Positions 2,528 to 30,600 of a stretch of DNA of 31,498 nt are shown here, one piece after another. The notes under the pieces are model-generated. The model searched no databases, was not told the origin of the DNA, and worked only from the letters and a program-made list of their open reading frames with translations. The stretch's first letter is position 1. Every line of letters begins with the position of its first letter. The position numbers were made by a program, and so were the translations under genes. Source of the stretch: Promethearchaeota archaeon (GTDB lineage Archaea > Asgardarchaeota > Lokiarchaeia > Sigyniarchaeales > SOKP01); contig JBHLLU010000047.1 in NCBI GenBank assembly GCA_048938895.1, positions 1-31,498 of the forward strand, read 5' to 3'.

Positions 2528-4945
2528 TTGGTATTTCAAGAGCAATTTGATGGGTGGCTATTAGATGTATCTACCCATGGCAATGGAGTTATTCTTTGGG
2601 TAAAGACGGTAAAAGAGCAAAAGATAGTAAACATCTTTCATGATTTTTGTCCTGAATTTTTTGCTGTTCCAAGACGGCATGCTGGTAAGGATTTTAAGAG
2701 ATTAAAACAAATTCTTGAATCACATGATAATGTAAGCAGTGTGAGAATCTGTGAAAAATATGTGAAACTAGAAGACCATGAGAAAAGTACGATTTTTGGT
2801 GTTTCTATCACCAAACCTTCAGTGTTTAAAAAAACTATTAGAGAAATTGATGAGATTGGACTTTTTACCCTGTACAATATTGATATTCCGATAGCTCAGA
2901 TGTATTTCTACGTAAACGACTTGTTTCCAATGTCTCTGTGTGGGTTTAGGGTGAAGATTAAAAAGAAGAAAGCTGAGGGACATTTCCTAGGCTTAATCTC
3001 ACTAGAATTAAAAGACGACAACGAAAAACTGTTTTATGATTTACCTCCACTAAAGGCTGTTTGGTTAGATATCAAAATACAGCAGCAAGGGATAAGAACA
3101 TATTATAACGATCCTTTAGCATATGTCGAAGTGAGTATTGTTGAAAAAGATGAGAAGGCTAACATTCCAAGGGCAGACGGACAAAGGAAAAGAAAAATCA
3201 TTATTGATGAGGCTGATGAGGCTGAAACCATCAAGAAAATTAGTAAGGTGATTGAGCGACTGGATCCCGATATCATCCTTACCCATGGAGGTGACGAGTT
3301 TGTATTTCCTTACTTGGTTGCACGAGCATCAGTAAATCATGTTTCAAAAGATCTCTATCTTTCTCGCACCAAAACTCCCCTTAAAAACTGCATTTTTCAC
3401 CTTTCAGGAAATTCCGATCACTATATGACCTATGGGATAATAATGCGCCGTTCCAAAACCCAAGTTTACCTTACAGGGCGGTTTCATTTGGATACAACGA
3501 CTTATGGGAGTTTGCACTTTAGTGAGGGAAATATCCCTGGTGTTATCGAAGTCGCAAGAATTTCTCGAGTGCCCATGCAACGATTGTGCAGGGTGACTAT
3601 CGGAGGAGCACTTCACTCTATACAGTATTATAATGCATATAAGCTCGATCATCTTATCCCTCCTTTCAAAAAAAGCCCAGAAGACTTTCGAAATGGCATG
3701 GATCTCATAATTAATGATCGGGGAGGTCACATTTTTGAACCAATGATCGGAGTCTTTGATCAGGTGGTAGAACTCGACTTTTCAAGTATGTATCCTTCCC
3801 TGATGGCTAACTTTAACATTTCATCGGAAACGCTTAATTGTAAATGTTGTAAAGATGATGGTACTGGAATCAAAGTCCCGGGTACAAGTTTTCATATCTG
3901 TTCCAAGCGAGAAGGAATCATTTCTAAATCCATTAGCTTGCCTCTCAACAAACGACTTTTTTACAAGGAATACAATAAGACACATGATGATCTCCGATAT
4001 AAATTCACTGATATTGCATTAAAATGGGTACTTGTAGTGAGTTTTGGTTATTTAGGTTTCAAAAATGCTCGTTTTGGTAAGATTGAAGCCCATCAAACGG
4101 TATGTGCTTTTGCACGAGAATTTCTCATGCGATCTGCTGAAATTGCCCAAAAGTATGGGTGCCGTATCATTCATGGAATAGTGGACTCACTGTGGGTAAA
4201 AGACAACAAGGGGCGATCTCCTGAAGAATTCGAAGAATTAACAAAGAAAATTGCAGAGGAAATATCAAATAGTACAGGCATCCCTATGAGTTGGGATGGA
4301 TTGTTTAATACTATTGTCTTTTTACCCTCACGAGCAGAACCTGATATACCCGCGCTCAGTCATTACTGGGGGATAAAAAACGATGGAGAGGTGAAGGTGA
4401 GGGGAATCGAAGTAAGACGTAGAGACATGCCAAAAATAGTAAAAGATGCACAATATGCATTTATTGATGTTTTTCAAGGTGCAAAAACAGTTGATGAGTT
4501 TACAAAGAGAATTCCTGAAGCAAAGAAAAAACTCTATGAATATGTAGAAAGAGTATACTCAGGTACAGTTACTCGTGAGGAATTAACGATCCGACAGAAG
4601 ATCTCTCGTAGACCTTCTCAATACAAGGTAAATTCGTATCAAGCCGTAGCAGCCAGACAGCTTGAGCGTTCAGGAGTAATAGTATCGGCGGGTAAAAACG
4701 TGAGATATATTATTCTCAATGCTGATGCTGATCCTGCTTTTCCTGAAAAGAAGGTGATTCTCTCGGATTTATATGATGATAAAAAACACGAATATGATAA
4801 AAAGAAATATGTAGAACTGCTGAAAAGGGCATTTGAAAACATCTTTCCCTTTGAATTTCCTGAACTTAAAGAATTATTGAAGTCTGATTATAATAAGAAA
4901 TCGACTCAAAAAGATCTTTTTTGTTTTATTGGAAATACTATTTAA
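2528..4945 (+). CDS. polB2: Family B DNA polymerase, PolB2 (Dpo2-like) group, with a degenerate proofreading exonuclease domain
   Basis: Motif A is DFSSMYPS. Motif B is ALKWVLVVSFGYLG. Motif C is HGIVDS in place of YGDTDS, typical of PolB2. The thumb carries KVRGIEVRRRD. ExoI reads DIK and ExoII lacks its Asp. TTG start. Confidence 0.9.
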   Translation: MVFQEQFDGWLLDVSTHGNGVILWVKTVKEQKIVNIFHDFCPEFFAVPRRHAGKDFKRLKQILESHDNVSSVRICEKYVKLEDHEKSTIFGVSITKPSVFKKTIREIDEIGLFTLYNIDIPIAQMYFYVNDLFPMSLCGFRVKIKKKKAEGHFLGLISLELKDDNEKLFYDLPPLKAVWLDIKIQQQGIRTYYNDPLAYVEVSIVEKDEKANIPRADGQRKRKIIIDEADEAETIKKISKVIERLDPDIILTHGGDEFVFPYLVARASVNHVSKDLYLSRTKTPLKNCIFHLSGNSDHYMTYGIIMRRSKTQVYLTGRFHLDTTTYGSLHFSEGNIPGVIEVARISRVPMQRLCRVTIGGALHSIQYYNAYKLDHLIPPFKKSPEDFRNGMDLIINDRGGHIFEPMIGVFDQVVELDFSSMYPSLMANFNISSETLNCKCCKDDGTGIKVPGTSFHICSKREGIISKSISLPLNKRLFYKEYNKTHDDLRYKFTDIALKWVLVVSFGYLGFKNARFGKIEAHQTVCAFAREFLMRSAEIAQKYGCRIIHGIVDSLWVKDNKGRSPEEFEELTKKIAEEISNSTGIPMSWDGLFNTIVFLPSRAEPDIPALSHYWGIKNDGEVKVRGIEVRRRDMPKIVKDAQYAFIDVFQGAKTVDEFTKRIPEAKKKLYEYVERVYSGTVTREELTIRQKISRRPSQYKVNSYQAVAARQLERSGVIVSAGKNVRYIILNADADPAFPEKKVILSDLYDDKKHEYDKKKYVELLKRAFENIFPFEFPELKELLKSDYNKKSTQKDLFCFIGNTI

Positions 4946-5121
4946 TCACACTAAATAGCACTTAGACTTTATGATTCAATTTGAAATTTTGCATCATGGG
5001 GAGTTAATTGTTTATATAAGGACGCTTAGTTTGCTATTTCCAAGAAGTTGGAAAAAATCTGGGGACCGTTGAATGTTAAGAAAGAAAACTAAAGATGGTT
5101 AATCGAACCGACATAAAACCA

Positions 5122-5184
5122 ACAAAAAGGTATAATAACCCCTTAATAGTTGCCTTTAAATATAGATCAGTCAATTTATATATT
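5122..5184 (+). promoter_or_regulatory. Putative archaeal promoter of RNA copy 1
   Basis: TTTAAATA TATA box at 5155-5162, about 25-30 nt before the first helix (5185). The upstream block is almost identical in copy 2. Confidence 0.6.
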
Positions 5185-5475
5185 ATTCACATCTAATGGT
5201 GTGAAGCAATTTGCATCGTGATGTGAATGTCGAGAAGTAGTATTAGCATATCAGTGTGTTTTGCTAATTGAATTACTTTCGAGTAAAACAAATTAGTAAG
5301 TTCATACTTCCCTCACAGGAAGGAATACTATATCTTCGGATATAGAGTTGAACGATGGATCTTTGGATCCGCTGTTTAAAGTGATTTAACGCATTGATTA
5401 GTCTATATGCACGTATAGATTGCTTATACTTCGCTGATGAAAAACTTCGGTTCTTCATTAGCAGCTTCTCGTCCC
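5185..5475 (+). ncRNA. Putative novel ~290-nt structured ncRNA, copy 1
   Basis: Hairpins: 5185-5228 (GCAA loop), 5273-5286 (UUCG), 5307-5322, 5328-5345 (cUUCGg), 5348-5379 (cUUUGg), 5400-5421 and 5433-5462 (cUUCGg). Long-range helices: 5231-5238/5464-5471 and 5250-5260/5388-5398. Covariation with copy 2. The ends are inferred. Confidence 0.85.
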
Positions 5476-5501
5476 TTTATTCTTTTGGTTTTTTTACTTT
5501 T
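5476..5501 (+). terminator. U-rich archaeal-type terminator after RNA copy 1
   Basis: TTTATTCTTTTGGTTTTTTTACTTTT directly follows the closing helix. Confidence 0.5.
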
Positions 5502-5633
5502 GAAAATTGTTTTCTTCTTGAGAGATCAAATCTAACAGATAAAATTAATTAAAAAAAAATAATGAGTTACTGAAAAGAGCTTTGGGAAATGTTTTAAATC
5601 CCGACTTAAAAATTTGCTATTCTTTATTAAGCG

Positions 5634-5696
5634 ACAAAAAGGTATAATAACCCCTTAATAGTTTTCTTTAAATATAGATCAGTCAATATATATCTT
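5634..5696 (+). promoter_or_regulatory. Putative archaeal promoter of RNA copy 2
   Basis: TTTAAATA at 5667-5674, with the same spacing to the first helix (5697) as in copy 1. Confidence 0.6.
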
Positions 5697-5987
5697 GTTC
5701 ATATTTAATGGTGTGAAGCAATTCGCATCTTAATATGAATGTCGAGAAGTAGTATTAGCATATCAATGTGTTGCGCTAATTGAATTACTTTCGAGTAAAA
5801 CAAGTTAGTAAAATCGTACTTCCCTCACAGGAAGAAACACTATATCTTCGGATGTAGAATTGAATGATAGGTTTTCGGATCTGTTATTCAAAACGATTTA
5901 ATACATTGAAAATTCATATGAAAATATGATATCGCCTATACAATGCTGATGAAAAACTTCGGTTGTTCATTAGCAGCTTCTCGTCCC
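5697..5987 (+). ncRNA. Putative novel ~290-nt structured ncRNA, copy 2
   Basis: Same helices as copy 1 with pairing-preserving substitutions. Tetraloops are GCAA, UUCG (four times) and GAAA (5920-5923). Closing helix 5743-5750/5976-5983. Confidence 0.85.
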
Positions 5988-6009
5988 TTTATCCTTTAAC
6001 TATCTTTTT
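5988..6009 (+). terminator. Pyrimidine/U-rich putative terminator after RNA copy 2
   Basis: TTTATCCTTTAACTATCTTTTT follows the closing helix. It is weaker than the copy 1 tract. Confidence 0.35.
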
Positions 6010-6066
6010 CAAATTAAGAGGAATTTCTTCGTGCTTATCAATACTAAAATAAAGAAAAAAAAGAGT

Positions 6067-6609
6067 TTAAGGAAGTGTAAATACTTCAAAAAAGTCAAGG
6101 ATAATTATTATTAAGCAGATTAGTTCAATAAGAATCCACAGATTCCGTTTTAGATTCCTGATTGCTCCAAGAGGTTTACCAAAGTAATTAATAAGATTAT
6201 AAATGAAGATAACTACCCAGGCGGTAACTAAGAATGCAATCGGGAGAATTAATGTAATAAGTTCGCGACCAGCATACAATAATATATATTTATAACCAAG
6301 AACGGAGAATCCAATAATCACAAGAGTGAAACCAAGACCAAATGAATATTCTGCGAAGTTAACAAAACGTTTAATTCGATCTTCGTGTGCTTCTCCTGAG
6401 TTAGCTTCAAAGTTTGCTTTTGAATTTGCAGACACCGAATTAACAAAGAAGACAAAAGAAAGCATTAGTAAGAATGTCGAAGTAACGATCCCATCAGGTG
6501 GAGGAAATTGCCAAATTAACGCAAGAATCGTTAACACTGCCCCAATCATTACTGTGCTTAAAGTTATCCAATCTTTCACATTGATTTTTGATTGTTTTTG
6601 ATTGCTCAT
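6067..6609 (-). CDS. Hypothetical ~5-TM membrane protein
   Basis: 180 aa with about five hydrophobic helices. AGGTG Shine-Dalgarno upstream of the ATG. Confidence 0.75.
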   Translation of the reverse strand: MSNQKQSKINVKDWITLSTVMIGAVLTILALIWQFPPPDGIVTSTFLLMLSFVFFVNSVSANSKANFEANSGEAHEDRIKRFVNFAEYSFGLGFTLVIIGFSVLGYKYILLYAGRELITLILPIAFLVTAWVVIFIYNLINYFGKPLGAIRNLKRNLWILIELICLIIIILDFFEVFTLP

Positions 6610-9455: not shown

Positions 9456-10079
9456 TTAAATATAGGGTTGTCTGATGATAGTTTTCATTGATGCAGGATT
9501 TGTCTTCCGAGGATCACTCAGGTAAATTTCATGGTGTTTTTTTTTAAGACCATCAAATTTTCCTCCTTCTTTCTTTATAAAATCATGAATCTTTTGGATG
9601 GTAGGGCCTTCCTCCGAGTAAGGACCTATGTGCATAATCTGAGCTGATTTTCCTTCTTTATATTTTTCCAAACGAAGTTTCGGTAATAACTTTGAAAGCT
9701 CGGGTTTTTTCTTTTTGACAATAGCTTTTGCTTCATCAATTACTTCTTGAGTAATCCAATCAGGTTGTCTTATCATCATTGTCCATTTCCATTTATCTCT
9801 ATTTCCTTCTATGAAATCATTCATGTCATCTGCCCACCATAATCCTTCTAAAGGAGGAACTACATAATCTTTCCCTTTAGCTTTACTAAAGAACTTAGTT
9901 CTAAATGATACAGGATAAAGAACAGCAAGAGTATTTTGGTATTCTTTTGAATCTCCAGGAGAACCCATTCCATCAATCATAAGAAATTGCATGTCTGGAA
10001 TGTCTACAATTACTGGGTCTTGAGCTTTGTGTTGGTAGAACTCTTTTTGAATCTTCTTATAGTCAACTTTAGTTGGCAA
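9456..10079 (-). CDS. GyrI-like small-molecule-binding domain protein
   Basis: Motifs FLMIDGMGSP, YVVPPLEGLWW, WKWTMMIRQPD, QIMHIGPYSEE, HHEIYLSDPR and KTIIRQP. TTG start with AGGTG upstream. Confidence 0.85.
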   Translation of the reverse strand: MPTKVDYKKIQKEFYQHKAQDPVIVDIPDMQFLMIDGMGSPGDSKEYQNTLAVLYPVSFRTKFFSKAKGKDYVVPPLEGLWWADDMNDFIEGNRDKWKWTMMIRQPDWITQEVIDEAKAIVKKKKPELSKLLPKLRLEKYKEGKSAQIMHIGPYSEEGPTIQKIHDFIKKEGGKFDGLKKKHHEIYLSDPRKTNPASMKTIIRQPYI

Positions 10080-17852: not shown

Positions 17853-19481
17853 TTATTCTTCTGTAAGAGAATCAATAGCATTAATCGCTGATTCACATAC
17901 ATAGTCACATTCATCATGAACTAATCCATTTAAATTGGTAATAACATCTTCTGTGTTGACGCCAATCTTACCTAAGGCTTCAGAGGCTCTCCACCTGACA
18001 TCGGGATTCTCATCCTTTAAGGCTCTTAGTAAGGAAGGAATAGCTATTTTTGCTGATTCACCTAATTTTCCTAATGACAGTGCTGCTTCACGACGTACTT
18101 TTTCTCTTGGATCATTTAAAGCAAGTTCCAATCCATTGATTGCTGGTTCTGAATTAACCCCTATTTTTCCTAATGAGCGAGCAGATTCAATTCTTATAGA
18201 AGCTTTCATAGCAAGAGGATCATCGTAAAAAGTTTTTAATTTTCTCCTGATTTTATTTTTAAATAAAGGTTCAAACCTTTCTTCTTGCTCACCAACTTTT
18301 AATTGATTCAGAAGAGTCAGTATAGCATCCTGTGCTTTTACACCAATACCTCCTAGTGCAGAAATAATTATAACTCTCAAATGAGTTATTCTTTTCGTTT
18401 CGTTGTATTTTCCAATTCCAAAAATAATCAATCCTAAAATAATTAAGATTGGTTGCCACATAATAAACGATGAAAAAAGTGGATGAAACATAAACACTAA
18501 ACCAAGAACATAAGGTATCAGAGAAAGGATCAACACAATTTCGCTAATTTTAGAAATTCTATATGGATAATTGAATCTATTTTCGGTAGTTTCAACTTCT
18601 TTTGATAAAGTAGGTACAGCTTCTTCACCAATGCTTCTAAGTGCATCAGCTGCTTTTCCCCTAACATTTTCAGCTTTATCACCCAATAAACTTGCAATTT
18701 TCCCAATTATCTTGGGATCAGTAATCTTTATTTCCCCTAAAGCCTCAATAGCTTCCTTCCGAACAATGTGATTTTTATGAGTTAAAACTTCCAGTATGCT
18801 TGGAACGGCTGGTTCTCCAATATCTGCTAGTGTATTTACTACTCTATAACGTACTCTCCAATCTGGATCCTCAAGTGCATATATCAAAGCAGGAATAGCT
18901 CTCGTTGATCCTTTTCCAATTTGACTAATCGATTGAGCTGATGAAGTTCGAACTGTCCAACTTACATCTTTCAAGCTTTCCATTAATTTTGGTATTGCTT
19001 CAAAGGCATCTGGTCCGATTTCACCTAATGCTATTGCTGCTTCGGTTCTAACGATGTCACTATTATCATCAAGTGCATCTCTTAGGCTAGTAATAGATTG
19101 AATTGTTGGGTTGCCAATTTTCCCAAGAGCTGTTGCGGCTTCTTTTCTTATGGATTCTTCTTTATCTTTTAATAATATTGATAATCTAGGTACAGCGTCT
19201 TTGGCTAAAGTTCCAATTTTACCCAGTGAACGAGCGGCTTCTCGACATATACTCCAATCATCATCTTCTAAGCAGCTAGTAATTTTAGAGACAGCATCAG
19301 TAGATTTTTCTCCTACTTCGCCTAATACATGAATTGAATTAAATTTAATCGATCGAATATCACTATCCAGATGAGTAATCACATCATTTATGACTGACTC
19401 ATCTTTTTCAATTCTTGCTAGAATAAGGTCAATTCTAGCATCTCTTAATAATTTTTCTAAGGGTGCTGACAAGTTGATCAC
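17853..19481 (-). CDS. HEAT-repeat (PBS-lyase-like) solenoid protein with an internal two-helix membrane hairpin
   Basis: More than ten repeats of L.D.D..VR..AA.ALG.IG. Two hydrophobic helices at about aa 312-357. The GTG start lies 1 bp after the livF stop. Confidence 0.85.
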   Translation of the reverse strand: MINLSAPLEKLLRDARIDLILARIEKDESVINDVITHLDSDIRSIKFNSIHVLGEVGEKSTDAVSKITSCLEDDDWSICREAARSLGKIGTLAKDAVPRLSILLKDKEESIRKEAATALGKIGNPTIQSITSLRDALDDNSDIVRTEAAIALGEIGPDAFEAIPKLMESLKDVSWTVRTSSAQSISQIGKGSTRAIPALIYALEDPDWRVRYRVVNTLADIGEPAVPSILEVLTHKNHIVRKEAIEALGEIKITDPKIIGKIASLLGDKAENVRGKAADALRSIGEEAVPTLSKEVETTENRFNYPYRISKISEIVLILSLIPYVLGLVFMFHPLFSSFIMWQPILIILGLIIFGIGKYNETKRITHLRVIIISALGGIGVKAQDAILTLLNQLKVGEQEERFEPLFKNKIRRKLKTFYDDPLAMKASIRIESARSLGKIGVNSEPAINGLELALNDPREKVRREAALSLGKLGESAKIAIPSLLRALKDENPDVRWRASEALGKIGVNTEDVITNLNGLVHDECDYVCESAINAIDSLTEE

Positions 19482-19482
19482 C

Positions 19483-20196
19483 TCAAATTCCTAAATATAC
19501 CTTTTTAATTCGAGGCTCTTTCTCTAACTCTTCCTTGGTGCCTCTCATTTCGATTTTACCCTCTTCAAGCACATGAATGTATTCTGAGACTGCCATGGCT
19601 AAAACTGCATCTTGCTCTACTAATAGAGTGGTTGTACCTCCTTTTTTTATGATATCAATGGCTTCAAATATAGTCGCTTTTATCTTTGGTGCTAAACCTA
19701 ATGATGGTTCATCCATTAATAGTAATTTTGGATTTGACATAAGTGCTCGAGCAATTGCAAGCATCTGTTGCTCTCCACCACTTAAAGTTCCTGCACGCTG
19801 TTTTTTTCTCTCTTTAAGGCGAGGAAATATTTCATACACAAATTTTCTTAATTCACGAGCTTTTGCTTTATCTCTAAGAAAATATGCCCCCATATCTAAA
19901 TTTTCACTCACTGTCATATCAAAAAATAACCTACGACGTTCTGGGCAGTGAGCAATTCCCTTTCGAGCAATTCGATGAGGTTTTTCCTCATCAATCCGTT
20001 CACCAAGGAATTCTATTTTTCCTCTATCAGGTTCCTCTAAACCTGATATAACTCTGAGCAATGTCGACTTTCCAGCTCCGTTTGGACCAATAACAGCCTC
20101 AAGAGCTTCCTGTTTTAAATTTAAATTTATCTCTTCAAGAGCTTTTGCTTTTCCATAATAGAAATATATTTTTTTTAAATCAAGCAAATCCTTCAC
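19483..20196 (-). CDS. livF: LIV-family ABC transporter ATP-binding subunit
   Basis: GPNGAGKST, LSGGEQQMLAIARAL and DEPSLGLAP motifs. Confidence 0.93.
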   Translation of the reverse strand: MKDLLDLKKIYFYYGKAKALEEINLNLKQEALEAVIGPNGAGKSTLLRVISGLEEPDRGKIEFLGERIDEEKPHRIARKGIAHCPERRRLFFDMTVSENLDMGAYFLRDKAKARELRKFVYEIFPRLKERKKQRAGTLSGGEQQMLAIARALMSNPKLLLMDEPSLGLAPKIKATIFEAIDIIKKGGTTTLLVEQDAVLAMAVSEYIHVLEEGKIEMRGTKEELEKEPRIKKVYLGI

Positions 20197-20920
20197 CTTT
20201 ACCTAAATATGCTTCTAACACAATTTTATTGTTGGCTACCTCTTTTGGAGGTCCATCAGTAATAAATTTTCCTTGATGCATAGCAATTACACGTGGGACT
20301 AATGTCATTAGTTCACGGAGAACGTGACCAGTTATAAAAATGGTAACTCCATCGTCATGTAATTTGTTTATTAAATCTGTGAGAATTACCTGTTCTTCAT
20401 GTGAAAGTCCGCTAAATGGCTCATCAAGGAGTAATAATTGAGGATTAGTTCCAAGAGCTTTCCCAATTTGTAGCTTTCTTAAATCCCCATGTGGTAAAAT
20501 AACTGGGGGGATCCTCGCTCGATCAATAAGTCCTACTGAGGCAAGAATTGAACTAGCATACGCTTCCGATCCCACTTTTTTTGAGACTTGTTTACCTCGC
20601 TTCGAAAGGCAAGGAACAACTACATTATCAAGTAAACTTAAAAACTTAAAAGAACGCACTAACTGAAAAGTTCGCGCAATACCATAATTTACAATTTTAA
20701 ACGGTTTCAACCCAGTAATGTCCACACCATCAAAACGTATTTTTCCTGAGCTGGGTTTTTCAAACCCACTTATTAAGTTAAATACCGTTGTTTTACCTGC
20801 CCCATTTGGCCCAATCAGTCCAACGAATTCTCCTCGCTGTATTTCAAAACTAAAATCATTTACAGCAGTTAACCCGCCAAATTTTTTTGTCAAATTTTTT
20901 ACTTCTAATATAATTCCCAT
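20180..20920 (-). CDS. livG: LIV-family ABC transporter ATP-binding subunit
   Basis: KKFGGLTAV, GPNGAGKTT, GIARTFQ, LLLDEP and EAYLG motifs. Overlaps livF. Confidence 0.93.
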   Translation of the reverse strand: MGIILEVKNLTKKFGGLTAVNDFSFEIQRGEFVGLIGPNGAGKTTVFNLISGFEKPSSGKIRFDGVDITGLKPFKIVNYGIARTFQLVRSFKFLSLLDNVVVPCLSKRGKQVSKKVGSEAYASSILASVGLIDRARIPPVILPHGDLRKLQIGKALGTNPQLLLLDEPFSGLSHEEQVILTDLINKLHDDGVTIFITGHVLRELMTLVPRVIAMHQGKFITDGPPKEVANNKIVLEAYLGKGEGFA

Positions 20921-20950
20921 TATTTTACACTATTTTTTTTATTAAAATTC

Positions 20951-22003
20951 TTACCTTCCTAATAATACATCCCATAAATCCTTAAGGTGTTCTAGAATTG
21001 GCATTAAGATCCCTCTTTCAGCAAATCTTACAACTACCATCAAAATTACAGCAAATATAGCAAATTTCCATAATCCAACATCGATTGTAAGAGGACCAAG
21101 ATTTATAATACCGATCTCTACAAGGGCATACTCAAGAAAAATGAAGAAAAAAGCACCTAAAGCAGCTCCTCTAATAGTAGTTAACCCGCCTAAAGATGCC
21201 ATTAGAATAGCAAAAAAAGAAATAAGCGTTCCAAAATTACCGGTAGGATTTACAGCTGTAGTATATAACGCATAAAAAGTGCCTGCTAATCCAGCGAAAA
21301 AAGCACTAATCATGAAAGCGATTACTTTATACTTTGTTACATTTATACCTGATGCATCAGAACCGGTTTCATCATCGCGAATTGATTTAAAAATTGTACC
21401 TAATTTAGATTTACTGATTTGAATTATTATAATAAATGTAATTATTGTAGCAAAAAAAATAATAAAGTATTCTATAATAGGATCATCTGATAACGCGGGT
21501 AACCCTGAAATTCCTTCAGAACCGAAAAACCATTCAGCAAGGGATCCTTGTAGAGTTAGTTTTAATAAAATCAAGCTAATTGCAAGGGTACCAAGTGCCA
21601 AATACGGACCTCTCAGCCTTAAACATGGAGTTCCAATTAAAAAACCAAAAATAACTGCAGCTATACAACCGATAATTATAGCTAACCAGATTGGAAAGTT
21701 TTGATAATCGATGAAATAAGCACAGAAATAACCTGCAATTCCAAAAAAAATAGCATGTCCAAAACTAATTTGACCAGAAATTCCGGTAAGTAAATCCCAA
21801 CTAGCTGCGAGAATAGCAAAAATCATTGCTAAAGTAAATTGTGGTAAAAAAACATATACATAGCTCGGATCGGTAGAAAAAAAAGGTATAAAGATTAGAA
21901 GAATTAAAAGAACTATGGTTAAACCTCCAGAAAAGGTCGTCGCCCAAGATTTTAAATATCCTGGAAAATACGTTATTTTTTCCTTTATGTTTTTCTTAAT
22001 CAT
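20951..22003 (-). CDS. livM: LIV-family ABC transporter permease
   Basis: GQISFGHA, LRLRGPYLALGTLA, IRDDE...GIN and LGGL motifs in a multi-TM protein. Confidence 0.92.
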   Translation of the reverse strand: MIKKNIKEKITYFPGYLKSWATTFSGGLTIVLLILLIFIPFFSTDPSYVYVFLPQFTLAMIFAILAASWDLLTGISGQISFGHAIFFGIAGYFCAYFIDYQNFPIWLAIIIGCIAAVIFGFLIGTPCLRLRGPYLALGTLAISLILLKLTLQGSLAEWFFGSEGISGLPALSDDPIIEYFIIFFATIITFIIIIQISKSKLGTIFKSIRDDETGSDASGINVTKYKVIAFMISAFFAGLAGTFYALYTTAVNPTGNFGTLISFFAILMASLGGLTTIRGAALGAFFFIFLEYALVEIGIINLGPLTIDVGLWKFAIFAVILMVVVRFAERGILMPILEHLKDLWDVLLGR

Positions 22004-22023
22004 TTTGAAATAACACCATAAAC

Positions 22024-22905
22024 TTATCTTAATTCCTTCTTTCCAAATAATCCTTGTGGTCTAATTAGAAGCATTACAACAATTACAATAATTGGGACTA
22101 AGTGAGCCCAAGATGGACCATTAGGGATGAAAACACTCGTAAAACTAGTAACATATCCTACGATGTATGCCCCAACAACACTCCCTACAAGACTTCCCAT
22201 ACCCCCAAGGATGACCACAGCAAATGAATTCGTCAAATATCCCCAACCCATTGCAGGACCATCGAGAGATGCCGCGGGTAAATATAAAACTGCTGCTATA
22301 CTTACTAAGAATGATGAAATCATCAAGGTGTAAAGAAGAACTCTGTTAGCATTAATACCCATAAGACTAGCTGCTTCTTTATCTTGAGATACTGCTCTAA
22401 TTGATTTACCTAATTTTGATTTATTGATAAATAAAGCAAAAGCTGTTACAATTATTAATGATGCAATAATAAGGAAAATAAACTGATTTATATAAGAAAA
22501 ACTGGGTGTTTCTAGTACCCCATCAAATATCTTATACTCTTTAACTGAACGTGATGTTGTACCTGAAAGTGCAAAAACATATTCTTGAAAAAAGAAAGCT
22601 AAACCAAACGTAATTAACACAACACCTACATTTGTATCTTGTAGGGGTTTAATAAGCAATATATAAGAAATCCCACCTATAATTGTAATAAAAGCAACAA
22701 CAATAATTGCAATCAGCCAGGGGATCTCGGGTAAGAAAGACGGAAACCAAAAAAGCATATATCCCGTCATCATAAAAAACGCACCATGAGCAAGATTCAT
22801 AATATGACCCACTCCATATGTCAAGGAATATCCAAGAGCTACCAATGAAAATACTGCTCCATTAACGGTGCCATTGAACAAAAAATTTATTATTTCTCCT
22901 TCCAT
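22024..22905 (-). CDS. livH: LIV-family ABC transporter permease
   Basis: ALGYSLTYG..NLAHG, GKSIRAVSQD..A.LMGIN, ILGGMGS and RPQGLFG motifs. Confidence 0.92.
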   Translation of the reverse strand: MEGEIINFLFNGTVNGAVFSLVALGYSLTYGVGHIMNLAHGAFFMMTGYMLFWFPSFLPEIPWLIAIIVVAFITIIGGISYILLIKPLQDTNVGVVLITFGLAFFFQEYVFALSGTTSRSVKEYKIFDGVLETPSFSYINQFIFLIIASLIIVTAFALFINKSKLGKSIRAVSQDKEAASLMGINANRVLLYTLMISSFLVSIAAVLYLPAASLDGPAMGWGYLTNSFAVVILGGMGSLVGSVVGAYIVGYVTSFTSVFIPNGPSWAHLVPIIVIVVMLLIRPQGLFGKKELR

Positions 22906-23058
22906 TATTCATAACTCTTACTTGATCATAAATTATTTTCATAAAAAGATCTCATCTTTTAAAAAGCTGTCGTTTTATCAGATGCATATTTTATTTTTTA
23001 GAAATCGTTTAATAAAATTTAATAAAAAAAAAAAATAAAATTTAAAATTATCTTAGCC

Positions 23059-24435
23059 TTAACTCCACGCAGTATTAACCCAGGGGGCAACTACATAAGG
23101 ACCTGTTGATACCCAAGGAGCGTAAATAGAAGCAGGAATTACGTTCTTAGTTCCATCAGTTTGCCATTGGCACCATAGAGTATATCCGTATGGAAATCCC
23201 GCTACAAGATCATGGGATTTTGGCCACCACGCACCGCCTCCACTAACACCAGGATGTGGATTGGAAGTAGTCCAAGTCTCCATATGTTGGATTATATCGT
23301 TATCTCTTAGAGATTGAGTAGCAAAAACAGCATCTTTGATTGCCATTACCGCATCATAGGCTCCACATGCAATATAGAGAGGTTCATGTTTGAATTCATC
23401 AATAAACGCATCCCAGAAGGCAATTGAAGTTGTAGTCTTATTAGTTTTGTATAGGGTTTGCATAATTGTCTCATACACACAATCACCTCCCGTATCCTTC
23501 CAGAAAGTATCTAGTTGTGATTGAACATCGATACCAAAAATAAGGTAATCATAATTGTTAAGGGCATATTGCTGCATCATCAAAATCCCTCCCTGAGCAG
23601 AAATTACTGGAATTACGATATCCGCGCCATCAGATTGGAATGAAGCTAGGTGTGTATTCATATCTGTAGCACTTAGAGTAATATCATATAAAATTGGAGT
23701 TAACATTGATGCCCAACCACCTGTGAGTGCTGGGAGATATCCTGTTATTGCAGCTACTAAGCTAGTTACCCATGTAAGATCTTCTGCAAGGACACCAATT
23801 TCTTTCACATCATGGTTAGGATAAGTTGCATTCATCGTTAAAATAAAGCCCGCTAGAGTACCTAATATTTGTCCACCTAACGAGGTTGAATTAATAGGCA
23901 TAAATCTAAAGAACCACTTATAATTCGGATAATCGGTTAATACATTTGTACAAAAGACATCGGTAGCTGCTCCGGTATCAATAAAGATCACTTCTGCATC
24001 CATAAATTCTTCGACATAGGCTAATAATGCTTCAGATCTAAAACCACCAATTCCAAAGTCGACCTCCTTGTCATAAATAAGTCGTCTTGCAGCATCAATA
24101 CCTCTTGCAGTTACAAGATTTGTATTTGATTCATCAGTATCTTCTTTAGTAACCCCAAAATAATATGTTGTTGAATTAATAACAACACCTCCAGCTTCAT
24201 TAATGGCTTTACATGCAAACCAAGCACCTTCATAATTGGCATCCCCTTGAATTTCACCAGTATCACCCGCACATCCAATTAGAATTGTATTATCTTTATC
24301 AAATCCACTTGGAGCTCCAGGATATTTGATTTCTGATTCTGGTGCAGAAAGAAAAATAAATGCGCCTATTCCTATCCCTACACCAATTACAACAATGAGA
24401 ACTATCGCTAAAATTCTTTTAGTTGCTGATTCCAT
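23059..24435 (-). CDS. LIV-family (periplasmic binding protein type 1) substrate-binding protein with an N-terminal membrane anchor
   Basis: N-terminal KR followed by a hydrophobic helix. INEAGG, GGFRSE and GAYDA motifs. First gene of the liv-type operon. Confidence 0.88.
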   Translation of the reverse strand: MESATKRILAIVLIVVIGVGIGIGAFIFLSAPESEIKYPGAPSGFDKDNTILIGCAGDTGEIQGDANYEGAWFACKAINEAGGVVINSTTYYFGVTKEDTDESNTNLVTARGIDAARRLIYDKEVDFGIGGFRSEALLAYVEEFMDAEVIFIDTGAATDVFCTNVLTDYPNYKWFFRFMPINSTSLGGQILGTLAGFILTMNATYPNHDVKEIGVLAEDLTWVTSLVAAITGYLPALTGGWASMLTPILYDITLSATDMNTHLASFQSDGADIVIPVISAQGGILMMQQYALNNYDYLIFGIDVQSQLDTFWKDTGGDCVYETIMQTLYKTNKTTTSIAFWDAFIDEFKHEPLYIACGAYDAVMAIKDAVFATQSLRDNDIIQHMETWTTSNPHPGVSGGGAWWPKSHDLVAGFPYGYTLWCQWQTDGTKNVIPASIYAPWVSTGPYVVAPWVNTAWS

Positions 24436-24652: not shown

Positions 24653-27600
24653 TCAGAAATTCAATATAAGGAGTTGAATCGTAAACAAAATTCCAAAAAA
24701 TATCAATAAAATAAATAAAATGAGAAGTGTATAAAACCTTCTTCTTACCGAAATTTTTTCCCTTTCTTCCTTTCTCCTCATGAAAATCAAGACTATTGAA
24801 CCCGCGACTGCAATTGATATAAAAATTGTGAAAATATACCCTACAGGTGGTATATATATAAATAAAAAGGAAATTGCACTACCCCATCCATAAGATAAGC
24901 GTAATATTCTTCTTTTAAAAACAATATCTGGATCCTCTGATTTTGAAGAAGGAACCACTAAAATTAAAAAGGCAAAAATCGCGAGTGTCAATAAAGTTGG
25001 ATGAATTGGTCCTAAAAGTACCCCAAAAACAAACTCAGATAAAAGAACTCCAAGGAAAATAGCAAAAGAAGCACTGAATAGAAACCAAATTATTTTGAAA
25101 TACTTCTTTATGAAGTTTAAAATTGCTTTAAACCCATTAATTATAATTCGCTCAATGTTTCTTAAGACTTTAGTAAGAAAATCAACAAGTCTATTTAAGA
25201 GTTCTCGCAATTCTTCCAATAAAAATACAAATGCATAAATTGGTATCATTAAAATGCCTACGATTAAGACAATCTGCCAAAATTGAGTCAATTCAGCTAA
25301 AATTTCACTTGATAATAAAAACAATGCTGCCCAGAAGATAAATGCCTTAAATGAATGTTCCTTGAATGGTTTAACAATAATACCTAAGAAAACAACAGAG
25401 ATTAATGATGAAGTACTTAAATTTAACCAAAAAGTGGTGTTAGGCACATTTTGTAAACCTAGAAAACAATTTATCGAAAGTAATACTCCTATTGTAAGAA
25501 AAGAAGAGTTTCTTACAACTTTTAACAGCTTTTCCTTTAGAACTCCTAGAATTTTATCAATATATGTGAAAAAGAACATAAGAACAAGAGAAATAATAAA
25601 TAAATTGAGTAGATATACTACTTCCATTCTGGCAAAATAAATTGGCCAACTAATAAAATTTGAGTATGAGATTATTATTAATGCTGATTTAAATTTTTCT
25701 TTTTTCATTATAAAATATTGCCAAAAATTCAATAATCTAAATAAATAGGCCATTTCAAGAATTAATACAAATATTATGAGTGGTATTGATGTAGATAGAA
25801 AACCGATAAAATACTCACCGTAAAGCCAAAATAAGTAACTAGTCGTAAAAATCATAATTAAAACCCATGAAATCCACATAGTGGGATGTTTCGCAAATCT
25901 TCCCAGAAATTTGGTAAGAGAAATATCAATTATCATAAGGACATGAATTAATAAACTCAAACTTAGTAGAATTAATAGAAAATCAGCATTCAACAAAATT
26001 AATGCTTGAAGTAAGATGATACACAAATTTAAATAGATGGATAGACCTAAAATATGATCAAGATTTGACCTCCACTTTTTATACGTCTCAGTTTTCTCTG
26101 TATTCAAATATTTTAATGAAGTGAATAAGGAATAATTAGTATAGAACTGTAGAATGATGAATATTAATGCTTCGATACTAAGTAAAATTTGATATTGTGA
26201 AACAAGATTATTTAAAATAAGAAATATCATCAATGAGATAATGAAAAAACTTAGGGTGTGGATTAACTGAGCAAATCCTCTCTTAATTTTCTTAATAGAA
26301 TAAATATCTAACAATGTTAAGGTAAAGAAGCTCAATTGAGAGACAAGCAAGCTTTCTAAAAATCCCGCATGAGCAACTTCAGACATTAAGCCATAAAATA
26401 AGGTGCTTATTTCAAAATAAAGTAATATTATGAGTAATGAAAACATTCTGGTCAGAAAATTGGGCTTTTTCGTTTCAAAAAATAAAACATTGAGGTACTT
26501 AACTGTTTTAAATAGGAAGCAGGTTTCAATAACAATGATGAGAATGATTGAAAAGATATTTAAGACATCAAATAAAGTAAAGATAATAATCCAATTTATA
26601 GCAAATAAACTCTGAAACACGGCAAAAATAATCAATTCAATTAAAGATTTCATTCGAGTATCAACTTTAACAAGAAATATGCTTAAAATAAAAATAATTA
26701 GAAAAGAATTTTGGAATAATAAAGTATAGTATGGTATACCTCTTAATTCATCAATAAGGTTTACAATTCCCTCTGAAATTAGAGAACCCAAATAGAATGA
26801 ACCACTAATAAATAAAATATAAAATAATAGAATCCTCCCGTTTGAAATCTTTTCTCTGGGTATATCAAAGTAAGAAAGGAAAGTAAGTGAAATTTGGTTT
26901 AGAAGTGAAATTAACACTAACAATAAGAATGGATTTGGGTAAAAGCTAAAGAAAAAGAATGAAAAAATATTACAAAAAGCAGTCCATGACCAAAAAATGA
27001 ATTTATCTCTGATTGAATTAAATAAATAATAGAAAATCCTTCTATCTAATATATACACTTCGAAAAATATAACTCCACTTAAAGATAAAAAGAACATGAA
27101 AGATGATATTATAATATCTACTTCGATATACAGCATAAAAAGTAAAATAGTTATAGATAATGCTGTGGGGATTAGTAAATATATGCTAAAACAGATTCTG
27201 TTAAATTGAAGAAGTGGATCCTTTATCTTTAAATCGAATTCTGATTTTTCTATATATTTCAAACTTAAAAGAATGAAAAATGGCCAAATCATAAGAAAAT
27301 CAAGAATTTGGTAAACATAGGTAATCCCACTAAATAGGGATTGGTGCATTACTAAAGGACTTAAAATTGATATCAGAAGAGAAATAAATGCAGAATTTAA
27401 TAGAATACAAGTAAAATTCAGTAACTTAAATTGATTTCTATCTTCATAAATCCTCATTATACTATTCTCTATTTCTTTTACTCCCTCTCTTGGTTTAGCT
27501 TTGAATAAATTGATTATTATTTGAAATAAAAGGAGATAAATTGTTGAAAAGCATAAAAATCCTAAAATCCATATGGATCGGATTAAGGGAACAGATACTA

Positions 27601-30600
27601 AATACCCTAAAATCGGTAATGTTATAGGAATAGGAATTAAAATCCATAGAAAATACCTGTAATCAACCACTAGAAAATAGAGAAATATTGTGAAAAATCC
27701 TGAGAAAATACTAATTTCATTATAAATGGATAAATTGTACAATGTTGAAACTAAAGTTGATATGGATGCAGAAGCGCCAATTGCAGTGATTAAGAATGGA
27801 ATTGCTTTATTGATATGAAATTTCATCTTATAACGATTGAATATAAAAAATGAGGATCCAAACACGGTCATTGCTAAAAATAATGCAAAAATTTCCAAAC
27901 CTGGGAATAAACTGAATGTATTGAATGTGAACCAAGAGAAATTTATTATTAAGATCCAAGAAAGAACTTGATTAATTAACTTATTTACCAATTTGAGTGG
28001 TTTCGATGAGAATAAACTAAATCCCATTACAATGAAACTGATATTAATTGAAACTACTATGTCAAGAATTATAGAATAAATAAGGAAATAAATCACAAGA
28101 AAGATACCAATAAGAACAATGCAATAACTCGTTAGTAAAACAATTCCTATTGATCTAATGTTAGGGAAAAACGAATACACAACTAAAAACAACCCTGCAA
28201 CTAAAATATCAATGGCCACTATCATATCAAATTGAAGTCCTATTGAGATTAAATAAAAGTAGAGAAAGAAAACATTAATTCCCATTAAACCTAACCAAAA
28301 AAGAGAAGTTAATTTCCAGTATTTTAAACCAACTAAGAATGGCATCAATAGAAATACTGAGAATAAGAAAAATGAAAGATATCGTAGACCAATATCTTGT
28401 GTAAATAGATTCTGGCTTATCCAATAGAGTAAAAATAAGCTCTCGCCCCATATTATAAGGATTATCTTCAAAAAGTTTTTCTTTATCTTAGTATATAAAA
28501 CCGGGAGGAAGAATAATGTACAAATAATAACCGCAAGAATTGATGAACCTTTCACTTCAAAAATCCCAAATAATTGGATTGATTCTGTAAGAATGTCTAC
28601 ACCACTAAGACTTCTATAAATTATCCAGAAATTAGCAAACGGTAAAATATTCCATACATACCACCCTGATTTCCAGATTGCCCAGGAAACTTTCCAATGG
28701 TAGATCCCTACACAGAGGTAATATAGAAAGACTCCAATATTAATCACAATAATTATTGGTATAGGGTCTCCTACTAATCCAGGAATAGAAGAAATGATTA
28801 AGCAATAGAGAAAAAGTGGAAAACTAAAAATAATAGCAATTAAGATAAAGTAAAATGAGATTTTTCTAAATCTAACAGGAGCTTTATTATATAATAATAT
28901 AAAAGTAAATCCCGTTATACTCATTGTCAAGGTAAATGTTAGAACTGGACTAAAACTAATGTAAGTTGGATTGTTAAACAATATCGCATAAGAGATGAAA
29001 CTAATAAAATCGAATACAAGTAGAAGTACACAGGGTCTAATAAACCATTTATATAAATCATTATTCTGACGATAGAAATATATTCCAACAAAAAGCAAGA
29101 AGATAAACAACGATATTGTAATATTATATAGCAGTAGAATACTAGTGTAAGTGGATAGCAGTACAAAAGATAAGCAAGAACAAAGGCTATATAAAACTAA
29201 TTTCTCAATGTTATTATTTTTTCTATAATTTAACCAAATCGAAAGAAGTAAAACAGTTATGAATGTAATTAGATTCATGCTCACCAGAAATCCAAGTAAA
29301 GTAAAATTAAAACTCCCTAGAATCTCAAAATCACTAAAAACACTCAATAGGTCTAAATATATCACATAGCTTAGAAGAAAGTATGACAAAAATCTGAAAA
29401 TCAAGTTTAATAAATCAAATTTAATACTTCTACGATATAATAGAAGTATGAGGGTAATTAAAAGAGGTACAACATATACTATTTCAAAAACATAAAGTAG
29501 ACTAAAAAATAATAAAAATGCGGTAATATAGAAACCAATTGTATCTAATGTAGAATATTCTTCAATAATCTTATTAAATCTCTTCATGAAATAGTAGAGA
29601 TATTGAAAGCCATTAGCAAAAATAAAGCTATATTTCAAGAACACATTATTGTTAAAAATAGCAACATTTTGGGTAAGTTGAAGGGAAAATTCTAAATACA
29701 AAATTAATGTCGAGATGATAAAAATCCCAAGCATCATCTTTTTTATAAGAATTCGGTTTATTTCCGAAAAGATATTTAACTTCTTGAGATAACTAAGCGT
29801 AATTGGTGTAAAAAATGTAAATGTTAAGAGAAATATTATAATCAGGGATAAAATTGAATAAGATAAAATGATCGAAATAAACATACATAAAATTATTTTC
29901 AAAACTAGCCAAGAGCCTAAACCAATCCCATTGTTTACTTTAATAAAAGCGATTCTTACTTGTGCGCTAAATAACCTAATCAATGGAAGAAAAGTCAATA
30001 GAAACAACCCGATGTACCAAATAGCATTCAAATCTCTTAAATATGATGGGATAGAAGTTAGAATCTCGCTAAATTGGATAATAGATACAATCAAAAATGA
30101 AAAAGAAAGGACTAGACCATATAATAAAATTTCTTCAAGGGAATGAATGAACCTTGCTTCCTTGGAATAGGAAACTAATAATCTCACAGTATAAATGTTT
30201 AAAACAAAAAATATAAAAATTGAAATACTTATTGAAATCTCAATTAAAACATAGGAAATAATGCTAAAATCTACAAATAAGGATATTGAAATCCAGGAAA
30301 ATGCTTGTATAAGTCTAAGAGTGTTTTTCCATCTTCCTTCTGGTGAGTACCAGTTACTAACAATAGTTAAAAACTTCAAAACAAGAAATAATAATATCAA
30401 AGATGATGCGATTATGAGATAATAATTGATCTCCAAACCCAAACGAGTGAATTCTAACCCCACAATAATTGGAATTAATATAATTAAACCAGAAAGAAAA
30501 ATACTATTAACCATCAATGAATTTTTTACAATTTTTTCACCGAAATATCGTTTCCTATAAGAAAATATACTTGGTAAATAGAAAAAAACCGAAGCCGCTA

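Follow-up and report, generated by a model that had tools for sequence, protein, structure and literature searches.

Two tandem copies of a gene for a large structured RNA lie in a 31,498-nt stretch of DNA from a Promethearchaeota archaeon (contig JBHLLU010000047.1 of assembly GCA_048938895.1), here called the window. Very probably, both are members of a family of structured noncoding RNAs that has not been described before and whose genes are transcribed independently. The family now comprises more than 80 sequences and, as far as searched, is confined to one Asgard family.

The copies form a direct repeat with a period of 512 nt from start to start, flanked upstream by a family B DNA polymerase gene and downstream by a convergent gene for a protein of 180 amino acids (aa). 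The repeat unit also takes in about 70 nt of upstream promoter. Across the RNA body the copies are about 84-85% identical, and no open reading frame (ORF) of at least 40 aa is common to both. A duplicated structured RNA had been proposed here in a reading made without database searches (the sequence-only reading), and those of its coordinates and helices that were checked all proved to be as first described. The parts of the RNA needed below are the following.

5185-5480, + strand: RNA copy 1, the more diverged duplicate, which keeps all pairs (minimum free energy, MFE, z -7.7)
5697-5992, + strand: RNA copy 2, nearest to the single-copy orthologues (MFE z -8.5)
5185-5228, + strand: 5' hairpin P1 of copy 1, whose inner stem has a GCAA cap; among 29 sequences, six of the nine pairs of helix 1 are changed on both sides
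5231-5238, + strand: 5' strand of the closing helix P2 of copy 1, CGAGAAGU, whose partner is 5464-5471 (RNAalifold)
5464-5471, + strand: 3' strand of P2 of copy 1, GCUUCUCG (RNAalifold)

Fold and covariation

The consensus fold, obtained with RNAalifold on copies 1 and 2, has 103 pairs. Twenty of these differ between the copies: 13 are changed on one side by way of G-U and seven on both, with no pair lost. A replaced hairpin, in which the alignment is uncertain, accounts for two of the seven double changes. The earlier observation that differences between the copies preserve pairing is thereby borne out. Substitutions between the copies are also rarer in paired columns (27/206) than in unpaired columns (23/98).

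Each copy folds far more stably than expected from its composition. The MFE of copy 1 is -101.7 kcal/mol (z -7.66) and that of copy 2 is -94.1 kcal/mol (z -8.48), and in either case none of 200 dinucleotide shuffles is as low.

The RNA begins with the 5' hairpin P1. Its outer strands are AUUCACAUC/GAUGUGAAU at 5185-5193/5220-5228 in copy 1 and GUUCAUAUU/AAUAUGAAU at 5697-5705/5732-5740 in copy 2, so that the change of helix proposed from the letters can be read directly at these positions. The inner GCAA-capped stem of P1 is an insertion peculiar to the subgroup of the window; other subgroups are without it.

P2, an 8-bp closing helix (CGAGAAG/CUUCUCG), abuts the 5' hairpin and encloses a multi-helix junction. 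In copy 2 it is formed by CGAGAAGU/GCUUCUCG at 5743-5750/5976-5983, and the helix said to close a nested multi-junction domain is therefore present in both copies. The 5' strand of P2 is the most conserved sequence across the whole family, and the most conserved nucleotides of the family sit in helices P1 and P2.

Inside P2, the junction holds a long-range helix, which carries an ornate, variable domain whose hairpins have UUCG and GNRA caps, and also a small hairpin and a conserved 3' hairpin. The long-range helix is formed by 5251-5260/5388-5397 in copy 1 and by 5763-5772/5900-5909 in copy 2. A short UCCCUUU tail ends the RNA.

Homologues of the RNA occur in three forms: a short form of about 280-305 nt, to which both copies belong, a long form of about 360 nt, and arrays of several units. 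The RNA of about 290 nt that was originally proposed is thus real as the short form, and is one of three forms of the family rather than the whole of it. Three covariance models were built. R1 comes from the two window copies, R2 from 17 long-form homologues minus the 5' hairpin and tail, and R3 from 30 short-form and array units.

For the short forms and arrays, 29 distinct sequences were aligned to R1, an alignment that is itself fitted to the structure. In this set 93.5% of 2653 cells pair, compared with 36-44% when the partner is slid by 1-3 columns. Double changes are found in 57 of 103 pairs (shuffled mean 35.4), every one of the 13 helices has at least two doubly changed pairs, and none of five measures is reached by shuffles (0/500).

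For the long forms, 17 sequences were aligned with MAFFT alone. Here 96.2% of cells pair, compared with 34-45% when slid, and double changes are found in 27 of 103 pairs against a shuffled mean of 12.8 (0/500 shuffles). A further measure, the number of further pair types, is matched by 94 of 500 shuffles. Covariation, first seen between two copies, is therefore strong among homologues in both sets.

Paired columns contain 333 G-U cells and 46 A-C cells. This large excess of G-U fixes the + strand and means that selection acts on the RNA, as the sequence-only reading had held; it is the mark of one-strand RNA selection, not of an element of duplex DNA. The orientation of the promoter and of the U-tract is consistent with the + strand.

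A pseudoknot was also sought by all-against-all covariation. The 429 column pairs found outside the structure are clearly phylogenetic noise, and no tertiary pair is claimed for this reason.

Promoter and transcription

Both copies are flanked by promoter and terminator-like signals.

5108-5119, + strand: distal upstream motif of copy 1, CCGAC and an A-rich run, read directly
5133-5149, + strand: gene-specific upstream element of copy 1, the 17-mer TAATAACCCCTTAATAG
5155-5163, + strand: TATA box of copy 1, TTTAAATAT, read directly
5472-5503, + strand: 3' tail UCCCUUUAU and U-tracts of copy 1, a putative terminator, read directly
5601-5640, + strand: distal upstream motifs of copy 2, a CCGAC-A-run and a GCGAC-A-run, arranged as at array loci
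5645-5661, + strand: gene-specific upstream element of copy 2, the 17-mer TAATAACCCCTTAATAG
5667-5675, + strand: TATA box of copy 2, TTTAAATAT, read directly
5984-6010, + strand: 3' tail and U-tract of copy 2, a putative terminator, read directly

The consensus TATA box TTTAAATAT lies six bases past TAATAACCCCTTAATAG, and its center is about 26 nt before the 5' hairpin, which is the usual archaeal spacing. Oligo-U tracts work as terminators in archaea. Transcription would thus start near the first base of the 5' hairpin and end in the U-tract. With its own promoter, its U-tracts and a convergent next gene (6067-6609, minus strand), the RNA is its own transcription unit and not a leader of a downstream gene, in agreement with the first interpretation of this region.

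About 70-100 nt of upstream sequence is conserved along with the RNA. The family promoter combines TAATWAC-N3-TTAATAR with a downstream TTTAAATA some 22 nt ahead of the RNA, and is present in the window at 5133-5163 and 5645-5675. Farther upstream, the motif of CCGAC or GCGAC with an A-run, in one or two copies, recurs before homologues in other genomes and in metagenome contigs, and may be a factor-binding site.

In the 4.65-Mb genome, the two RNA genes are the only places where the 17-mer TAATAACCCCTTAATAG is found with zero or one mismatch. There are 32 matches at up to three mismatches, two of them at zero.

The promoter can also be used to find the RNA. A pattern made of the degenerate upstream element and the TATA box was scanned in one genome per species for 185,579 species and gave 24 loci. 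Of these, 21 are in Asgard (Promethearchaeota) metagenome-assembled genomes (MAGs), where the RNA comes next in 21/21; the other three are bacterial and have no RNA (0/3). The polymerase gene is next to the RNA in 12 of the 24 loci, including members of a second genus with an RNA of about 353 nt. A second pattern, made of the TATA box, the 5' hairpin and the closing helix, gave 38 loci in metagenomes: R2 finds the RNA in 28, one ends after the 5' part, and nine are chance matches.

Promoter-like matches in genomes that are negative for the RNA precede an AAA-ATPase-like gene, not an RNA. The motif AAAYTAAAGATTAATAAnTAAnTTTTAAATA lies about 110 nt before this gene at loci L101 (genome G062) and L103 (genome G023). 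By eye, the gene looks like Orc1/Cdc6. The same motif, which partly resembles the RNA promoter, also occurs at G005:C162:742-771, where the motif alone was seen.

These upstream signals bear on the idea of a regulatory RNA. Such an RNA would serve as a protein decoy or sponge, like 6S or 7SK, or would act by base pairing, and would be induced by a dedicated factor at the upstream element. Conservation is higher in the promoter than in the RNA, and the promoter has repeated motifs that are found at this gene only, which suggests tight and specific regulation; an accessory gene, and an RNA with one hairpin on its 5' side, another on its 3' side and a U tail, would suit this role as well. Against it, no conserved single-stranded seed stands out, no linked regulator gene was found at the three types of locus, and known archaeal base-pairing small RNAs (sRNAs) are far less elaborate than an RNA of 300-360 nt with 13-16 helices. 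A regulatory RNA is considered unlikely.

Expression of the RNA is indirectly supported by RNA libraries. Four of the 18 listed sequencing runs with small word shares were examined. Runs X3, X4 and X6 are recorded as RNA and come from three studies; X1 is recorded as metatranscriptomic and is probably DNA. Contigs of all four align to 5736-5985 of copy 2. They include a 228-nt contig of X4 with three differing letters, and identical contigs of 97 nt (X6), 84 nt (X3, with summed depth figures up to about 1200) and 211 nt (X1). Many contigs continue into unlike sequence and so derive from related RNAs of the communities sampled.

No contig of the four runs falls on copy 1 (5185-5480) or on the flanks at 5000-5702 and 5999-6100, except for a 34-nt piece of X1. 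This is no evidence of silence or of transcript ends. The runs sample other communities, in which the RNAs resemble copy 2. A discrete + strand transcript of about 290 nt had been predicted; what the contigs on copy 2 show is the presence of such RNA in RNA libraries.

In a 486-nt contig of X3 with a depth of about 900, a segment of about 70 nt with two UUCG hairpins (5819-5889) is repeated three or four times in tandem. The contig may be a real variant, or else an artefact that arose from a very abundant structured RNA during assembly or reverse transcription.

Homologues, loci and copy number

Searches of more than 40 genomes used the stricter filters of Infernal, with which weak members may be missed. 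Among relatives, R1 matches 22/61 genomes, all of the genus of the window, so that a covariance model built from both copies does retrieve Asgard homologues. R2 matches 27/41 genomes of the genus and 11/41 of the order, the latter from two genera of one family.

In the family, R3 matches 58/135 genomes from three genera: 35/53 of the window's own genus plus the window's genome, 21/42 of a second genus and 1/6 of a third. Ten further genera gave no match (0/33 genomes). Across the phylum, 14/151 genomes match, all within that family, and there is no match in 125 genomes from 26 other families. The suggestion of a new Asgard RNA class holds in that a new family exists in Asgard MAGs, but it is limited to one family and is missing from complete relatives. 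When R1 was run with lax filters on five RNA-negative genomes of the same genus (G005, G024, G023, G062 and G001), no hidden copy emerged, and the best match scored 13.2 bits (E 0.9). Because it is missing from complete relatives, the gene is accessory.

Over their full length, copies 1 and 2 match R1 with 352 and 347 bits and R3 with 269 and 268 bits, scores that are partly by construction since R1 was built from these copies and R3 includes them. R2, which comes from long forms of other genomes only, still matches them with 66.6 and 61.6 bits. Both copies show the structural features used to recognize the new family, namely P1 abutting P2, the long-range helix, the 3' hairpin and the UCCCUU tail.

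All forms have in common the 5' hairpin, the abutting CGAGAAG/CUUCUCG helix extended by GUAU/AUAC, and the long-range helix. On the 3' side they share a hairpin with CUUCGG-like loop caps, followed by the UCCCUU tail. The forms differ in the domain within the long-range helix. Four hairpins make it up in the short form, three of them in a four-way junction. In the long form it is larger and differently branched, with three GNRA loops.

The short form is found between the polymerase gene and the 180-aa gene, as in the window.

2528-4945, + strand: DNA polymerase family B gene, upstream context (Pfam DNA_pol_B and DNA_pol_B_exo1)
6067-6609, - strand: convergent gene for a membrane-like protein of 180 aa, context (no Pfam family)

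The window's genome has these two copies and no others. Copy 1 is 81-83% identical to the single-copy orthologues and copy 2 is 87-89.5% identical. As copy 2 is nearer to the orthologues, copy 1 is the faster-evolving duplicate, though no pair has been lost from it. Among the genomes searched, two units that each have their own promoter and terminator occur only in this one.

The long form is present in one copy per genome, with a gene for a 126-aa membrane protein ahead of it and a convergent zinc-ribbon gene behind it. In the window's genome, the orthologue of the 126-aa gene is present with no RNA after it. One genome, G114, has one short and one long form.

In arrays, one promoter is followed directly by two units (G070) or by three unlike units totalling about 750 nt, with a U-tract after the last unit only. 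Three-unit arrays are found in G019, G077, G126, G136, G137 (two arrays) and G144, and in eight metagenome contigs. One array folds with a z of -12. At L079 (the same as G070:C13), about 3950-4615, a short-type unit is fused to a long-type unit behind one promoter, a hybrid that links the main forms.

The number of units per genome ranges from 0 to 6, and most carriers have one copy. In G024, which is without the RNA, and in G006, which has the long form elsewhere only, the polymerase gene and the 180-aa gene converge with a gap of about 16 nt between them. Compared with 1.1 kb here, this shows that the RNA region is a clean indel.

Such an indel could be explained by a mobile or selfish cassette, non-autonomous and spreading among intergenic sites with the RNA as its cargo. 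The presence of the RNA at three or more unrelated loci and the range of 0-6 units per genome fit this idea too. A mobile cassette is nevertheless very unlikely, for several reasons. No terminal inverted repeats or target-site duplications are convincing around the cassette, and no transposase, integrase or other mobile-element gene lies near the RNA. Each locus type is syntenic across many species, and carriers are mostly single-copy.

A viral origin was likewise rejected. The promoter pattern occurs in none of the viral contigs, and the 41 viral loci with the 5' RNA pattern are about the number expected by chance (a rough estimate) and are all R2-negative. Comparison with phage and plasmid records by blastn gave no match. 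The pattern is best read as that of an accessory chromosomal gene which has undergone duplication, relocation and loss, and a mobile cassette is the less likely explanation.

A membrane-protein partner was considered and rejected: the 180-aa protein is unrelated both to the 126-aa neighbor of the long form and to the 154-aa neighbor of arrays.

Other genes of the window were noted in passing. A GyrI-like protein is encoded at 9456-10079 (- strand), 3.5 kb beyond the RNA genes on their downstream side. It shares 78% identity with the product of L156:4353-4976, a metagenome locus at which a three-unit RNA array lies two genes upstream, and an AMP-binding enzyme comes next in both. From this gene order, the array locus and the window locus may be in the same chromosomal neighborhood. 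Farther on, 17853-19481 (- strand) encodes a 542-aa protein made almost entirely of HEAT/Armadillo-type repeats (HEAT_2, 281 bits), which adjoins an operon for a branched-chain amino-acid ABC transporter at 19483-24435. Finally, 24653-31432 (- strand) is a giant ORF of at least 2259 aa, open at the end of the window, with no Pfam family at E up to 1e-4.

Comparison with known RNAs and possible roles

No known RNA class matches the two copies. At gathering scores, none of the 4227 families of Rfam 15 matches anywhere in the window. For 4900-6100 at E up to 10 there are four chance matches only; the best has E 0.55 and is to NmsRb, with 23 bits against a cut-off of 52. Ten homologue loci gave no match at gathering scores, and for four further ones the E-value mode gave four matches in total, none on the RNA. 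ARAGORN finds no tRNA or tmRNA gene in the window. Together, these negatives on the RNA uphold the initial view that it is no RNase P, signal recognition particle (SRP) RNA, tRNA, rRNA, intron or ribozyme of a known kind. In the full-text literature no paper was found that describes such an RNA, although unnamed candidates may be present in supplementary files.

A very divergent housekeeping RNA (RNase P, SRP, intron or rRNA fragment) is suggested by the size of the RNA, which is within the range of RNase P and SRP RNAs. A further point in its favor is that the Rfam SRP model yields only a 16.8-bit fragment in the window's genome (G000:C18:3865-3943). This explanation, taken together with that of a DNA-level element, is largely refuted and keeps hardly any probability.

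The archaeal RNase P model RF00373 (cut-off 84 bits) has no match on 5185-5992, even at E up to 10, and the RNase P RNA of the genome is on another contig (G000:C88:10858-11181, 123.2 bits). The archaeal SRP model RF01857 has no match in the window, and a full-length SRP RNA is found in 5/5 relatives with 57.6-76.3 bits, away from the loci of this RNA. No rRNA, intron or tRNA model matches, and the gene is missing from complete relatives. The group I and II intron models give nothing beyond a minus-strand match of 11.1 bits, where the gathering score is 50, and a match of 15.4 bits, where it is 140 (E 7.6-8.8). The RNA is also intergenic with its own promoter, unlike an intron inserted in a host gene.

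The SRP RNAs of the relatives (L030-L034) all score below the gathering score of 96.5 bits. Standard annotation would therefore miss SRP RNA across this family.

Archaeal RNase P and SRP (7S) RNAs do resemble this RNA in being stable, about 300 nt long, encoded by their own genes and built of UUCG- and GNRA-capped helices. They differ from it in that its ends do not pair with each other, it matches neither model and it is missing from complete genomes.

Guide sRNAs were covered to the extent that no Rfam snoRNA or sRNA model matches the RNA, with no search aimed at K-turns or guide targets. The CUGAUGA string at 5434-5440 sits in the regular, covarying helix 13.

A ribozyme would use the compact, GNRA- and UUCG-rich fold for catalysis, for example for the self-processing of multi-unit transcripts or for a reaction in trans. 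The large multi-junction fold, its several GNRA loops and its highly conserved core are in keeping with this, and multi-unit transcripts would need processing if the units act singly. However, even with E allowed up to 10, the RNA has no match to a known family of ribozymes. No invariant unpaired core of the active-site type was identified, and conservation instead peaks in helices P1 and P2. The genes of the window have their own promoters and terminators, so processing is not needed there. Catalysis is accordingly given a low probability, about that of the regulatory RNA discussed above.

An architectural likeness can be drawn to genes of the type 3 class of RNA polymerase III (U6, 7SK and Y RNA), as an analogy only. 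These genes have external promoters and, like the genes described here, a gene-specific upstream element that keeps a constant spacing to a TATA box; their products likewise start with a 5' hairpin, end with a 3' hairpin and stop at a U-run. Archaea have a single RNA polymerase. Rfam gives no homology to these RNAs, and the likeness may be coincidental.

A closer comparison is with the large bacterial RNAs OLE, ROOL, GOLLD and raiA. Like the Asgard RNA, they are long, multi-junction, strongly covarying, lineage-restricted and accessory, with their own promoter and terminator, and they are reported to be highly expressed. OLE, GOLLD, ROOL, HEARO and raiA, which are presumably all in Rfam 15, are absent from the matches at E<=10 for 4900-6100 and for four homologue loci. 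The Asgard RNA differs in being archaeal and smaller (300-360 nt per unit), in having no sequence or structure similarity by Rfam models, and in occurring in arrays of unlike units without a conserved adjoining partner gene.

One report describes GOLLD and two other large bacterial RNAs as forming RNA-only complexes (10.1101/2024.12.08.627333), and two others describe OLE as part of a membrane ribonucleoprotein (PMC9723947, PMC3413148).

By analogy, a scaffold or assembly mechanism can be proposed for the Asgard RNA. Each gene is a self-contained cassette of CCGAC/A-run motifs, family-specific element, TATA box, RNA of about 300 nt and oligo-U terminator. Acting in trans, its product would provide the compact scaffold of a ribonucleoprotein or of an assembly made of RNA only. 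Function would reside in the conserved core of 5' hairpin, closing helix, 3' hairpin and tail as a platform, with the inner domain as a module that can be replaced. Several units at a time would come from tandem genes or from multi-unit transcripts.

A scaffold is favored for four reasons: the conserved core is combined with a replaceable ornate domain; stabilizing UUCG loops occur with GNRA loops typical of compact tertiary folds; the RNA is apparently abundant in RNA libraries; and multi-unit supply, by tandem genes or arrays of unlike units, is recurrent. If the RNA does represent a new structured noncoding family, such a mechanism is plausible at somewhat less than an even chance. The full account, in which the window holds two genes of an undescribed stable RNA family whose product is a compact scaffold acting in trans, is taken to be slightly on the probable side.

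Several points weigh against these conclusions. All sequences come from one family, and the covariation counts include inherited changes rather than independent events only. The RNA-library contigs show neither strand, ends nor level, and carry-over of DNA into RNA libraries is possible. In the family, 77/135 genomes are without a match, among them the 100%-complete G005 and G024; any role of the RNA is therefore dispensable or lineage-specific. The neighbors differ among the three locus types, and no protein partner is indicated. The scaffold itself rests on analogy with other large ornate RNAs.

A bolder version of the scaffold account is doubtful. In it, a lineage-specific Asgard RNA would build a higher-order particle, of RNA only or of RNA and protein, from single units of tandem genes or from chains of two or three unlike units in one transcript, and would be switched on by a dedicated transcription factor at the unique upstream element. 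If true, no large ornate RNA class would have been known from archaea before, and its arrays of unlike units would be without a known counterpart among the homo-oligomeric bacterial examples.

To our knowledge, large and intricately folded RNAs outside the machinery of translation and RNA processing are rare. The few classes that are known have repeatedly led to new biochemistry. With more than 80 sequences in three forms, well-supported structures and a recognizable promoter, this family is directly testable.

The upstream element beside a consensus TATA box bears on how genes for stable RNAs are regulated in archaea, and the presence or absence of the RNA among close relatives bears on the accessory roles that are open to a folded RNA of 300 nt. 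The multi-unit arrays bear on the joint action of such RNAs. Should the RNA turn out to be an ordinary regulatory RNA, it would be of less interest, yet it would still be a new family of Rfam grade.

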